Shown: positions 45,762-50,715 of the stretch, piece by piece
Layout of the letters: each line of letters opens with the position of its first letter
Position numbering within the stretch: the stretch's first letter is position 1
Sequence record: SRR31156797_3690
Direction: 5' to 3' (one strand)
Length of the DNA: 64,000 nucleotides
The notes under the pieces: generated by a model
The model's input: only the letters and a program-made list of their open reading frames with translations
Told to the model about the DNA's origin: nothing
Database searches by the model: none
Made by a program: the position numbers and the translations under genes

Positions 45762-46478
45762 ATGCGTTTAGATAAAGTGATCGAGCAACAATTGAATACA
45801 TCTCGGAAAGAGATGAAACGGTTGTTCCAGCAAGGAAAGGTCTTTGTGGATCATAGGATTGAGCGAAGGCCCGAGCGCAACGTCGATAGCAGCTTGCATC
45901 AAATCATGGTTGCGGGGCGGCAGTTGGAAACACAGGAACGCTATTATATCGTCAACAAGCCCAAGGGTGTCGTTACAGCCAATCTGGATCAACAGCACCA
46001 GACAGTGATCGCTTTGATTGCACCCGAAGATCAACATCCTGATCTTTATGCCGTCGGTCGATTGGATCGGGACACGGAAGGGTTGGTATTAGTTACGACG
46101 AATGGTCAGTTAGGCTATGACTTGCTGCATCCCACCAAAAAGGTGACCAAGCGATATGAAGTGGTGGTCAATGACTTGGTGACTCCTGAGGATGTGGCGG
46201 CATTTGCTGCAGGGATCACCTTTCATGGTGGTGTCACTTGCAAACCAGCTGCCCTAACGATCATCGATGCCCGAGCGGATCATTCCTTTGTTTCGTTAGA
46301 AATTGCTGAAGGCAAGTTCCATCAAGTGAAAAAGATGTTTTTATCCCGAGGGAAAAAAGTCATTCAGCTGAAACGAACAGCGATGGGTTCGCTGGTTCTA
46401 CCAGATGATTTAGCAGTGGGCAGTTATCGCTCGCTGACGCAAGAAGAATTAAAAGGACTGGCGGCGCATTTCCGCTGA
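45762..46478 (+). CDS. rsuA: RsuA-family pseudouridine synthase
   Basis: MRLDK S4 domain, NKPKG, GRLDRDTEG, EGKFHQVK. Confidence 0.88.
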   Translation: MRLDKVIEQQLNTSRKEMKRLFQQGKVFVDHRIERRPERNVDSSLHQIMVAGRQLETQERYYIVNKPKGVVTANLDQQHQTVIALIAPEDQHPDLYAVGRLDRDTEGLVLVTTNGQLGYDLLHPTKKVTKRYEVVVNDLVTPEDVAAFAAGITFHGGVTCKPAALTIIDARADHSFVSLEIAEGKFHQVKKMFLSRGKKVIQLKRTAMGSLVLPDDLAVGSYRSLTQEELKGLAAHFR

Positions 46479-47176: not shown

Positions 47177-47259
47177 TTCTACAGAAACAGTAGTAATTTG
47201 CCGAATTTTCGCTATAATAGAACCAGTGTGAATTTTTTAAGATGAAAGAGGTTAATTGA

Positions 47260-47883
47260 ATGACGAATGGCAAGCCCATTATTATTGGTGTGACAGGTGG
47301 ATCAGGTAGTGGAAAAACAAGCGTGAGTCGGGCGATCTTTAATCATTTCCCCAACCATTCTATTATGATGCTTGAACAAGACTCCTACTATAAAGACCAA
47401 AGTGATCTGAGCTTTGAAGAACGGTTGAACACCAACTATGACCATCCTTTTGCATTTGATACTGATTTGTTGATCGATCACTTGCAGCAGCTGCTTGCAT
47501 ATCAAACGATCGAAAAACCTGTCTATGATTATGTCGCTCATACTCGCAGCGAAGCAACGATCATTCAAGAACCCAAAGAAGTCATTATCTTGGAAGGGAT
47601 CTTGATTTTAGAAGATGAGCGATTACGTAATTTAATGGATATTAAACTTTATGTTGATACAGACGATGATATTCGGATTATTCGCCGAATCAAACGTGAT
47701 ATGGAAGAACGTGGCCGGACGTTGGATTCTGTGATCGAACAATACTTGACGGTCGTAAAACCGATGTATCATCAATTTATCGAACCGACAAAACGGTATG
47801 CTGATGTCATCGTACCAGAAGGCGGCGAAAACCACGTAGCCATTGATTTGATTACGACCAAAGTGGCAACCTTCTTATCCTAA
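47260..47883 (+). CDS. udk: Uridine kinase
   Basis: [19 protein letters not shown]. Confidence 0.95.
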
Positions 47884-48044
47884 GGTTTCTTGAATCCATC
47901 GATTTGAACGTTTCTTTTGAGAAGAAACAACTGGTTCATGTAAAACTGCTGATAAGTGCTCTTTCTTGAAAGATGTTTATCCGCAGTTTTTGATTTTATA
48001 AAAAAAAACAGTAGTATTCCGACTAATTTTATGGTAAAGTAATC

Positions 48045-48229
48045 CTCATGCGACGAGTCGAGAAGGTCTAGCATTAGCTGACCAGATTGATAGCAGAGGC
48101 ACACCGCGTAAGCAACCTACCGGATTTGTAGGGTGTCGGAATATTCCTTTTGTGGAGATAGGGTATTCTACTAGCAATAGTACTGTGAGTGAAAAAAGCT
48201 GTGAACAATTTTGTTCACAGCTTTTTTTT
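48045..48229 (+). ncRNA. Candidate structured non-coding RNA of unknown family
   Basis: Extended -10 TGGTAAAGT at 48032-48040, several stems with GNRA loops, intrinsic terminator 48192-48229. Confidence 0.55.
48192..48229. terminator. Bidirectional intrinsic terminator
   Basis: AAAAAAGCTGTGAACAA-TT-TTGTTCACAGCTTTTTT. Confidence 0.85.
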
Positions 48230-48235
48230 GTTTAT

Positions 48236-48709
48236 TTACGTGAGAGAACAGCGATAGATGGTGGAAGACTCTCCCCAAGGGTGGTAGCCAGTGCCGATCG
48301 GTTCGAAAGCAAACTGCTCATAAAAAGTAGAAAGATCCGTACATAGATACAGAGAATCAAAACCAGCTCCAGCAGCGCGCTGTTTAGCTGTTTCGATCAA
48401 AAGGCGGGCACCGCCTTGGCCACGCCACAAAGGGTCCACATACAAGGCGCAAAGCCAAGGCGTCAAATCCATCCGACTGATGAAGTCGTTGGGGATCAAG
48501 CCGCCGCAGCCGATGATTTGATAAGGTCCGTCGGATGCCATCTCATCATTGACCAGCAGTAGCCATTGCGGCAAAATGCTTGTTGAAAAACTATGGGTCA
48601 GGCTGTCTTCATAAACCATGAGGGAATCGGGGCCAGCCCACTGTTTTTGGAAGTAACGGATCGCTTCTGCTAAGTATTCAGGGTGTTCTTTAAGGGTGAT
48701 GACCTGCAT
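48236..48709 (-). CDS. GNAT-family acetyltransferase
   Basis: PWLCALYVDPLWRGQG. Confidence 0.85.
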   Translation of the reverse strand: MQVITLKEHPEYLAEAIRYFQKQWAGPDSLMVYEDSLTHSFSTSILPQWLLLVNDEMASDGPYQIIGCGGLIPNDFISRMDLTPWLCALYVDPLWRGQGGARLLIETAKQRAAGAGFDSLYLCTDLSTFYEQFAFEPIGTGYHPWGESSTIYRCSLT

Positions 48710-48720
48710 TTTTTTCTCCT

Positions 48721-50037
48721 TTATCCTTCTTTAGGTAAGCGAATCTGAAAAATAACCCCTCGTGGCTGCAGATCTTTGACCAGAATTTGTCCTTTGTGCT
48801 CTTCGACGATTTGCTTGGCGATCGCTAAGCCTAAACCATAGCCGCCGGTCTCCTTGGAGCGAGAACGATCCTCGCGGTAGAAGCGGTCAAAGATGCGAGC
48901 TTTCTCTTCATCGGAAATAGTTGGTCCCGTGTTTTTGACCTCGATCAGCCATTGCTTGTTAGAAATCTCCGATAAGAGCGTAATTTTATCACCACTGCTG
49001 GTATATTTTAAGGCATTATCTAGGAGAATCACGAGGACTTGATGAATTTTCTTTTGATCAAAGCAAGCGGTCGTTTTGGCAAAATTTTCGACAATAAAAT
49101 GTTTTTGATCCAGTTCGGCAATTTCTTTGAAAGGTTTGACTAAGTCATCGATAAACGGAACTAATTCGACGGTTTCTTTCGTTAACAGCAGTTGATTGGA
49201 ATCACTGCGGGCAATCGTTAGTAGATCAGCCGTTAATCCAGTTAGCCGTCGGGTTTCCGCTAACGCTTGTGCAATGCTTTCAGATTCTTCAATGATCGTA
49301 TGATTGGGCTTGGTAAACAGGCGCTCCAGACTATTTTGAATGATCGTCAATGGTGTGCGCAGCTCGTGAGAAGCATTTTCGACAAATTCTTGTTGTTTCT
49401 TCCACGAGGCTAAAATTGGGCGCATGTTCAAGCTGGAAAGCAAGTAGCTGATCCCGATCGAGAGAATCCAGAAAAAAATCATCGATAAAATCAAGATGGT
49501 TTGGAAATTGTTCATGGCATTTTTGATTTGATTGGTGTTCGCTAAGACTTGGATATAGCCGACCCCGGCGTCATTGGTTGGGGCTTTGGTGGTGATTGAG
49601 CGAAACAAAAGTGTCTCTTCTTCCTCTGACAAGGACTGATCCACCACTGAAAAAGACGTGATACTGTCTAAATGGCTCGTATCTAAAGATAGACTTGCCA
49701 ATTGTGAAAAACGGCCGCCTAAAGTCTGTTTGTTTAAAATCTCGCCGTCCTCAGACCAGAGGATCAACTGGGTGTTGAAGCGATTGGTACCAGGGATCTT
49801 CGGCATTGCACTATCTGGTGGCAATACCTCTAGATTGGATTGCGAAGCGCTGATCTCAGCTTGGATCAAGCGGGTATCTTTGACTGCTTGTTCCAAAGAA
49901 ATATCGGTTTGACGATAAGCCGATTGGTTGAATAATTGGAGCACGATCGTTCCTAAAAGTAAGAAGACCAAAGCAAAGGCACTGACATTTAGGAGAAAGG
50001 AGTGCAGCCGTTGTCTCTTAGAGCGTTCTTTATTCAT
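48721..50037 (-). CDS. Sensor histidine kinase (CiaH-like)
   Basis: Two TM segments, FVENASHELRTPL H-box, DNALKY, FDRFYR, GYGLGL. Confidence 0.88.
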   Translation of the reverse strand: MNKERSKRQRLHSFLLNVSAFALVFLLLGTIVLQLFNQSAYRQTDISLEQAVKDTRLIQAEISASQSNLEVLPPDSAMPKIPGTNRFNTQLILWSEDGEILNKQTLGGRFSQLASLSLDTSHLDSITSFSVVDQSLSEEEETLLFRSITTKAPTNDAGVGYIQVLANTNQIKNAMNNFQTILILSMIFFWILSIGISYLLSSLNMRPILASWKKQQEFVENASHELRTPLTIIQNSLERLFTKPNHTIIEESESIAQALAETRRLTGLTADLLTIARSDSNQLLLTKETVELVPFIDDLVKPFKEIAELDQKHFIVENFAKTTACFDQKKIHQVLVILLDNALKYTSSGDKITLLSEISNKQWLIEVKNTGPTISDEEKARIFDRFYREDRSRSKETGGYGLGLAIAKQIVEEHKGQILVKDLQPRGVIFQIRLPKEG

Positions 50038-50040
50038 AGA

Positions 50041-50715
50041 CTAGGCTCCTTGCATAATATAGCCGACATTTCGCAACGTACGGATCTCTTTGTCGATTCC
50101 TGTCTGGCGCAAGTGTTTTCGCAGATTGCTCATGTAGACTTCTACGACAGTCAGGGTCGTTTCTGAATCGAACCCCCAGATGCGATCAAAAATCTGTTCC
50201 TTGGTCAAAATAATGTTTCTATTTTGTAGAAAATAGAGTAGTAGCTCAAATTCTTTCCCTTGAATCGGTAAAAGCTCCCCTTGATAGCTGACCTCGTTGG
50301 TGCCAAGGTTACAGAGCAACCCGTTATATTCCAGTGTATTTTCATTGAACAAACCTAAGGAGCGTTTTAGCAACGCTTTGATCCGCATCAATAATTCTTC
50401 CCGATAAAAAGGCTTGGTCAAATAATCATCAGCCCCTTTTTGAAAGCCGGTTACTTTGTCTTCTAAGCCGTCTTTGGCTGTTAAAATCAGGACGGGTGTT
50501 TGGAGTCCTTTTTTTCGTAATGCTGAAAGCACCTCATAGCCGTTCATCTCAGGCATCATCAAGTCAAGAATAATCAAGTCATAGATCCCCGTTTCCGCCT
50601 CGTACAAGCCTTCACTGCCATCATATGCTTGCGTGACTTCACCGATTTCGCTGACGATCTCTTTCATATTTTCAGATAATGTTTTGTCATCTTCGATTAC
50701 TAATAATTTAATCAT
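50041..50715 (-). CDS. OmpR-family response regulator (CiaR-like)
   Basis: MIKLLVIEDD, YEAETGIYDLIILDLM, QIFDRIWGFDSETTLTVVEVY, TLRNVGY resemble CiaR. Confidence 0.88.
   Translation of the reverse strand: MIKLLVIEDDKTLSENMKEIVSEIGEVTQAYDGSEGLYEAETGIYDLIILDLMMPEMNGYEVLSALRKKGLQTPVLILTAKDGLEDKVTGFQKGADDYLTKPFYREELLMRIKALLKRSLGLFNENTLEYNGLLCNLGTNEVSYQGELLPIQGKEFELLLYFLQNRNIILTKEQIFDRIWGFDSETTLTVVEVYMSNLRKHLRQTGIDKEIRTLRNVGYIMQGA

Follow-up and report, generated by a model that had tools for sequence, protein, structure and literature searches.

The RNA considered here belongs to the Ref series of small RNAs. The new sRNAs found in Enterococcus faecalis V583 by tagRNA-seq were, according to the available part of a 2015 study, named Ref47–Ref120, and a 2025 preprint (10.1101/2025.11.10.687296) credits Ref84 to that study. 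The preprint counts RF02840 among three RNAs that most enterococcal genomes carry and Listeria monocytogenes does not, and goes on to study RF02846 (sRNA 84) rather than RF02840. On what is described there, Ref68 resembles sRNA 84 in belonging to the Ref series, in being intergenic, trans-encoded and conserved across enterococci, and in having a highly conserved single-stranded 5′ end of the kind proposed to bind targets. Ref68 differs in size and architecture (~180 nt with a four-way junction, against 86 nt with two stem-loops) and in range, extending to Lactobacillaceae and other families while sRNA 84 is described in Enterococcaceae only. For sRNA 84, phenotypes at the mRNA and protein level that concern adhesins and colonisation are described in this material, and for Ref68 none.

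Here we analyse a Ref68 locus within a 64-kb stretch of DNA (the window). The definition of the Ref68 family goes back to a transcript of E. faecalis V583; its second name, Lacto-3, reportedly comes from a 2017 survey of 224 candidate RNAs, and is missing from the main text of the paper on those candidates. A literature search found no published function for Ref68, and the RNA is unnamed in the available main text of the E. faecalis dRNA-seq and Grad-seq papers. What is at stake is a family with no known function whose single-copy gene was found in every sampled Enterococcaceae genome and also occurs in some members of the Lactobacillaceae and of other families.

Membership in the Ref68/Lacto-3 family

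Comparison of the whole window with Rfam 15 (cmscan) gave three matches above the gathering score. RF02840, Ref68 (‘Enterococcus sRNA 68 / Lacto-3 RNA’), matches 48049–48159 on the + strand with 51.8 bits (gathering score 44; E = 3.7e-8 for the 64-kb window), spanning model positions 1–124 of 124, and the same match has an E-value of 2.1e-10 when the 361-nt region is searched alone. At E ≤ 1 the region yields Ref68 alone, besides a chance mir-7359 match on the terminator (21.9 bits, gathering score 90). At that threshold it gives no Rfam match to the 6S, tmRNA, SRP, RNase P, tRNA or ribozyme families, in keeping with the original prediction, which had recognised no 6S, SRP, RNase P or tmRNA signature. 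That prediction had also described the RNA as unassigned and possibly undescribed, and had named a clear Rfam hit as grounds for dropping the idea; RF02840, above its gathering score and over the full model, is such a hit, so the claim of novelty fails. The locus is an enterococcal copy of a catalogued, already known family and should carry the label Ref68/Lacto-3, which as annotation is an ordinary result.

The assignment holds on three counts. The score exceeds the 44 bits taken as the threshold for membership; this member has the RF02840 helices, and compensatory changes among homologues maintain them, P1, P3 and P3b being 83.8–100% paired with 20/21 pairs changing on both sides, and the last small stem of RF02840 (our helix 8) being 89.0% paired; and the taxonomic range, Enterococcus plus other Lactobacillales, is that of the family. 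The RNA of the window shares with Ref68/Lacto-3 the conserved 5′ block, P1, P3/P3b and the UGUGGA block. It differs in its short P1 and in an extra GNRA hairpin, P3a, which is an insertion relative to the model, and two pairs of the last RF02840 stem and of P1 are non-canonical in this member. The closest genome among those searched is G001, and each of the eight same-genus genomes (8/8) carries one copy; the sequence from another genome, G002, is that of Candidatus Enterococcus testudinis, with 132.5 bits in both. The window would come from a relative of Candidatus E. testudinis within Enterococcus.

Two other structured RNAs were recognised in the window, a T-box leader (RF00230, 39943–40192, + strand, 105.3 bits, gathering score 93) and a tRNA gene (RF00005, 31116–31188, + strand, 65.2 bits).

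Gene boundaries, neighbours and distribution

The region singled out by the original prediction, 48032–48229, is flanked by udk and a convergent GNAT acetyltransferase gene (Table 1). It had been described as a GC-richer stretch of AT-rich intergenic DNA, preceded by an extended −10 element and closed by an intrinsic terminator, and all three observations are upheld: GC content is 0.51 in 48050–48149 as against 0.28–0.33 in the intergenic DNA at 47900–48049, the extended −10 is where it was placed, and a stem of 17 pairs is followed by a T run.

Table 1. Features of the Ref68 locus and its neighbourhood, in window coordinates.
Feature	Position	Strand	Description
Pseudouridine synthase gene	45762–46478	+	S4 domain, RluB/RsuA-like, 238 aa; two genes upstream of the sRNA
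udk	47260–47883	+	PRK family
Hairpin and T run after udk	47942–47995	+	MFE fold of 47884–48047; not part of the sRNA
Promoter	48012–48040	+	Weak −35 TAGTAT 48012–48017, 17-nt spacer, extended −10 TG-g-TAAAGT 48032–48040
sRNA gene	48048–48228	+	RNA of ~181 nt; own extended −10 promoter and intrinsic terminator
5′ tail AUGCGACGA	48048–48056	+	9 nt, single-stranded in the consensus structure; most conserved part
23S-antisense stretch	48048–48061	+	UCGGCUCGUCGCAU, 14 nt; 23S nt 2521–2534 of 2915 (G002)
P1 hairpin	48057–48091	+	Variable length, branched in some genera; helices 1–2
P2 5′ strand GCAG	48093–48096	+	Closes the four-way junction with 48183–48186
P3	48098–48137	+	Stem 48098–48102 / 48133–48137; itself three-way
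P3a	48106–48113	+	Variable hairpin carried on P3
P3b	48116–48132	+	Loop CCGGAUU with near-invariant GGA
P4	48139–48168	+	Long hairpin, conserved apical UUUUGUGGAGA
P5 (UACUA-GCAA-UAGUA)	48169–48182	+	Outside the Rfam model; helix 9
P2 3′ strand CUGU	48183–48186	+	Helix 3
Intrinsic terminator	48191–48228	+	17-bp stem, 4-nt loop, U run
GNAT acetyltransferase gene	48236–48709	−	Convergent with the sRNA
Histidine kinase and response regulator genes	48721–50715	−	After GNAT; HisKA/HATPase_c kinase, OmpR-type regulator

The signals that bound the gene are conserved. At all 31 homologous loci (30 loci plus the window) a −10 hexamer TANNNT ends 6–7 nt ahead of (A/G)TGCGA, the −10 is extended by TG at 29 of them, and a terminator-like hairpin stands in the same place at every homologous locus inspected. 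The window's own promoter went uncalled in a generic promoter scan because its −35 (TAGTAT) is poor. From the promoter geometry, a promoter of the sigma-A extended −10 type would start transcription at about A48048, and the terminator would end it at about 48228.

Assignment to the + strand, which the original prediction had favoured from its GNRA tetraloops and G–U pairs, comes from other evidence. For the + strand the folding energy is −62.8 kcal/mol, with shuffled sequences at −44.65 ± 4.12 (z −4.41, 0/200 shuffles), and the − strand folds equally strongly relative to its shuffles (z −4.49); folding energy thus gives no choice of strand. It is the Rfam and covariance-model matches, the promoter and the terminator that place the RNA on the + strand.

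A small protein encoded on either strand, or a leaderless mini-ORF read from the 5′-terminal AUG, deserves practically no credence. ORFs of 43–74 aa do overlap the RNA on the − strand, and the RNA starts with AUG in 58 of 67 distinct sequences; however, the overlapping ORFs vary in strand, position and length between relatives, the ORF that opens at nt 1 has 2 aa in 12/30 sequences, 7 aa in 10 and 5–25 aa in the rest, and substitutions in the helices are compensatory, not codon-like.

The locus is contained in 22 public runs. The four RNA-labelled ones examined look like DNA: they consist of contigs, with pieces of ~1–10 kb running across the locus, and one of these runs has contigs of up to 142 kb. 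When 47200–48800 of the window was compared with four runs (X7, X8, X9 and X15), nine substitutions fell in udk (47544–47709) and six in GNAT (48533–48548). The interval 47710–48532, including the whole sRNA, had no substitutions and differed only in that the A run at 48000 and the terminator T run at 48222 changed in length by 1 nt.

Is the RNA tied to its neighbours? One reading has it as a cis-acting element, which would be either the 3′ UTR of udk after processing or a module (convergent transcript or terminator) controlling GNAT. The gene lies directly downstream of udk, on the same strand, at 14 of 30 loci (with udk 1.3 kb away at one more), and the terminator stem could serve the convergent GNAT gene in both directions. 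Against this, the RNA has its own promoter, conserved at 31/31 loci, and the hairpin and T run between udk and the sRNA, which from its fold is likely the udk terminator, would set the transcription units apart. Moreover, neither udk nor GNAT is adjacent at other loci, where the neighbours include a GFO/IDH/MocA oxidoreductase, PRD/Mga regulators, an aldolase, PTS EIIC, DUF960, a GDSL lipase, a phosphodiesterase and peptidase M19; GNAT is missing beside the RNA even at two same-genus loci (L011, L013). We therefore consider a cis-acting role very unlikely. A cis-regulatory leader or riboswitch was likewise rejected, in agreement with the original prediction that the RNA is not a leader: the terminator is followed by a convergent gene, with no same-strand gene directly downstream, and downstream genes vary in strand and family between genera. 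Since the neighbours vary in this way, the sRNA appears to act in trans and not on udk or GNAT. The original description of a stand-alone structured ncRNA fits well with the conserved promoter and terminator, the hairpin on the udk side, the varying flanks and the strong covariation described below.

Two regularities of position were seen. The two-component kinase beyond GNAT is kept beside the sRNA at 10/10 same-genus loci. A second recurrent position of the sRNA is directly after a GFO/IDH/MocA-type oxidoreductase gene (~324–338 aa), at loci L001, L002, L017, L021 and L135, an assignment made by Pfam for L001 and L017 only and by ORF size alone for L002, L021 and L135.

How far does the gene extend? 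RF02840 matches 31 of 41 related genomes at E ≤ 1e-3, 20 of them with a score above the gathering score, and each genome has a single match. The order was sampled evenly with 151 genomes; a model of the full-length RNA (see below) finds the RNA, again as one match each, in 54 of them: all 20 of the window's family, and 17/19, 6/19, 5/18 and 6/18 genomes of four other families. In four further families of the order (0/19, 0/18, 0/18 and 0/2 genomes) and in 140 genomes sampled from families outside the order there was no match to this model, and in a sample of the class the matches came from two genomes of the window's family alone; these surveys being samples, the gene is ‘not found’ in such groups rather than ‘absent’. 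Confirmed carriers include E. avium, E. cecorum, E. italicus, Candidatus E. testudinis, Tetragenococcus, Limosilactobacillus reuteri and species of Lacticaseibacillus, Lentilactobacillus, Ligilactobacillus and Fructobacillus. A genome-wide pattern scan proved too loose for this purpose: the model confirmed 25 of the 80 loci listed, and the remaining 55 were chance matches in unrelated, mostly GC-rich genomes.

The full-length fold

Downstream of the Rfam match, two further hairpins and then the terminator are found at every locus. RF02840 itself stops at 48159, inside the loop of P4, and draws a terminal 5-bp stem where the conserved RNA has the apical part of a longer hairpin. With its 124 positions the Rfam model is without the 3′ strand of P4, P5 and the closing helix P2, and so does not show the four-way junction. 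The catalogued model is thus truncated at its 3′ end: the real RNA continues for ~40 nt before the terminator and closes a four-way junction, which changes how the Ref68 family should be searched for and drawn. The architecture is a 9-nt tail, a variable hairpin P1 and a junction in which P2 closes P3, P4 and P5.

This fold was derived with two covariance models. The first (R1), built from five close sequences and a hand-written structure, matched positions 1–141 in 25 of 31 sources, with ends as marked by eye; the second (R2), built from the R1 alignment, matched 69 of 70 sources, including named contigs of Enterococcus, Tetragenococcus and Lactobacillaceae. Covariance models were adopted because the MAFFT alignment was not structural: MAFFT with RNAalifold on 25 full-length sequences recovered P5 alone, with four pairs. 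In an alignment of 67 distinct sequences the proportion of paired cells is 92.1%; sliding the 3′ partners by 1–3 columns lowers it to 31.9–45.1%, and none of 500 shuffles reaches any of the five measures used; in a smaller sequence set 94.7% of cells are paired and 40/44 pairs changed. The alignments behind these pair counts were fitted to the model, so the counts favour the structure. The original prediction had proposed a search for homologs and their covariation as a check; among the 67 sequences, 42 of 43 pairs show compensatory changes on both sides.

Support extends across all nine helices. In P1, helices 1 and 2 have 83.8% and 92.7% of cells paired, with 10/11 pairs changing on both sides; P2 (helix 3) is 95.5% paired, with compensatory changes in 4/4 pairs; helices 4–6 of the P3 domain are 100%, 96.3% and 98.4% paired; helices 7 and 8 of P4 are 83.3% and 89.0% paired, with compensatory changes in 11/11 pairs; and P5 (helix 9) is 96.3% paired, with compensatory changes in 5/5 pairs. 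P2–P5 make up a compact four-way junction with linkers of 0–1 nt. Most stems that had been picked out by eye in the window fall within this set: GGTC-TAGC/GCT-GACC is P1, GGCAC/GTGTC around GC-GTAA-GC and CCTAC/GTAGG corresponds to P3, P3a and P3b, and GAATATT..CCT/AGG..GTATTC and TACTA-GCAA-TAGTA are P4 and P5, all with covariation behind them. The proposed pairing of the ends, CTCATG with TGTGAG, has to be given up; its CTC lies upstream of the probable start at A48048, and the helix that covaries as the closing one is GCAG/CTGT. The GNRA loops GUAA and GCAA noted in the window are real in this member, but are not conserved across the family.

Conservation of single nucleotides is concentrated elsewhere. 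Among the 67 sequences, the most invariant are U2, G3, C4, G5, A6 and G8 of the tail (99–100%). The GGA of the P3b loop is conserved in 91–100%, with G76 at 99% and A77 at 100%; U80 is conserved in 96%, and G107 in the P4 loop in 100%.

A compact RNA of many helices around a junction, with invariant unpaired nucleotides, might suggest self-cleavage or some other catalysis. We judge this extremely unlikely for the modelled fold, given that the region matches no ribozyme family at E ≤ 1 and that the gene has the single-copy, chromosomal distribution of a housekeeping RNA.

The conserved GGA loops also bring to mind the CsrB/RsmZ sponges: Ref68 carries GGA motifs in the hairpin loops CCGGAU and GUGGAG and in UCGGAA at the junction, although it has two or three such motifs where the sponges have many repeats. 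A search for CsrA (PF02599) in 41 related genomes turned up none, and the controls E. coli, B. subtilis and T. maritima were positive; the idea of a CsrA sponge is therefore rejected.

A broader alternative is that the RNA is a folded particle, a scaffold or sponge for protein or an RNA working through its tertiary structure, whose contacts are the tail and the CCGGAU and UGUGGA loops, the match to 23S rRNA described below being coincidence. Densely covarying four-way junctions with conserved loops are commoner in protein-binding or tertiary-folded RNAs than in simple seed-pairing sRNAs. The 0–1-nt linkers of the junction, the very strong covariation of all nine helices and the clustering of conserved nucleotides in two hairpin loops (GGA 91–100%, G107 100%) as well as in the tail are what such a particle would be expected to show, and the gene is strictly single copy amid varying flanking genes, as housekeeping RNAs are. 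On the other side, the obvious binder of GGA loops, CsrA, is the one not found in the related genomes, and a particle of this kind leaves unexplained why variation in the tail is restricted to wobble-compatible positions (see below). We regard it as possible, if on the unlikely side.

Complementarity of the 5′ tail to 23S rRNA

Beside the peptidyl-transferase centre, 23S rRNA has a strand to which the near-invariant tail, AUGCGAYGAG(YYGA), is complementary (Table 1). The target directly follows the conserved ...CACCUCGAUGUCGG strand of the peptidyl-transferase loop and lies at what we take to be ~2506–2519 in E. coli numbering. The predicted duplex has 13 Watson–Crick pairs and one U·G and an energy of −24.5 kcal/mol. 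With the whole rRNA operon scanned, the null duplex energy is −15.9 ± 1.8 kcal/mol, and 3 of 3000 permutations of the 14-mer do as well.

The match also stood out in a search of five genomes with the reverse complement of the first ten tail nucleotides, CTCGTCGCAT. It occurs 28 times, 22 of them in one identical multi-copy context which is 23S rRNA (Rfam LSU, 2963.9 bits); two of the others are the sRNA gene itself, and four lie in unrelated ORFs, so that these genomes offer no conserved mRNA target with a perfect 10-mer. The loops of P3b and P4 were also considered as rRNA-antisense elements and discarded, 94/200 and 97/200 shuffles doing as well, which sets the tail apart from them and also fits the folded particle set out above.

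Variation within the tail is limited to wobble-compatible positions. The variable positions are 7 (C in 21 sequences, U in 46), 9 (A 59, G 8), 11 (U 49, C 15, 3 others) and 12 (C 54, U 12, 1 other), all of them opposite a G or U of the rRNA, so that a transition leaves the pair intact, while the tail positions opposite an rRNA C or A are invariant. Positions 10–14 also form the base of P1, and variation there is therefore doubly constrained. The extended pairing is broken in some members, by G11 in one genus and by U or C at position 1 in Limosilactobacillus.

Position 7 faces a 23S base that is G or A depending on the family. With A there, U7 is the sRNA base in 24/24 parsed genomes, plus G128 by eye; C7 is seen only together with a 23S G, the 17 genomes with that base having C in 8 and U in 9. 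C7 is confined to one family and the association follows phylogeny, so it may rest on very few independent events. The 23S base concerned, in ...GGCUC[G/A]UCGCAUCC... (e.g. L231, 5207–5220) beside the peptidyl-transferase loop, is in its own right family-specific in the sampled Lactobacillales: it is G in 62 of 108 genomes with the pattern and A in the others among those listed.

Can the target be reached? In a local fold the 23S target strand is base-paired in the mature subunit, which makes access uncertain. To our knowledge the a priori odds that a bacterial sRNA pairs with rRNA are low, and a literature search for small RNAs complementary to 23S rRNA found nothing related. In archaea and eukaryotes, RNAs that pair with pre-rRNA (U3, and the C/D and H/ACA sno/sRNAs) direct a short single-stranded guide of 10–14 nt against a central rRNA strand and carry it on a structured body. 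The tail and body of Ref68 recall this arrangement; the analogy is one of mechanism, drawn from general knowledge, and implies no membership in these classes, Ref68 having been read for an antisense element alone. We know of no bacterial example of such a guide-like RNA.

Taken together, the complementarity is suggestive of real pairing and falls short of proving it. In the explanation that we favour, with confidence somewhat above even, the locus is a Ref68/Lacto-3 gene (RF02840), kept in single copy in several Lactobacillales families at changing positions, whose RNA would act in trans. Antisense pairing through the invariant 5′ end is the mode we hold most likely, and the junction domain would serve as a stable body or as a platform for protein. 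The best candidate partner would be 23S rRNA. The peptidyl-transferase loop is directly followed on its 3′ side by a helix, and the tail would pair with the 5′ strand of that helix, a strand that would be reachable only in an unfolded or immature 50S subunit. That the tail does pair with 23S rRNA is, taken by itself, rather unlikely in our estimate. Equally doubtful is the specific model in which Ref68/Lacto-3 base-pairs with the 23S strand immediately 3′ of the peptidyl-transferase loop and competes with its helix partner in nascent or immature 50S, the body acting as an assembly chaperone, a checkpoint or a silencing factor, which would make the RNA a functional analogue of the eukaryotic RNAs that pair with pre-rRNA. 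If the hypothesis is true, no earlier small RNA of bacteria would have been shown to pair with rRNA at the catalytic centre, and the group concerned counts major hospital pathogens and food bacteria among its members; in any case the complementarity gives a family without known function a concrete hypothesis that is cheap to pursue.

One further feature of the neighbourhood touches on rRNA. The gene for the RluB/RsuA-like pseudouridine synthase (Table 1) heads a same-strand run of rlu-like gene, HAD hydrolase, udk and sRNA; the proximity of an rRNA-modifying enzyme to an RNA complementary to domain V of 23S rRNA may be coincidence.
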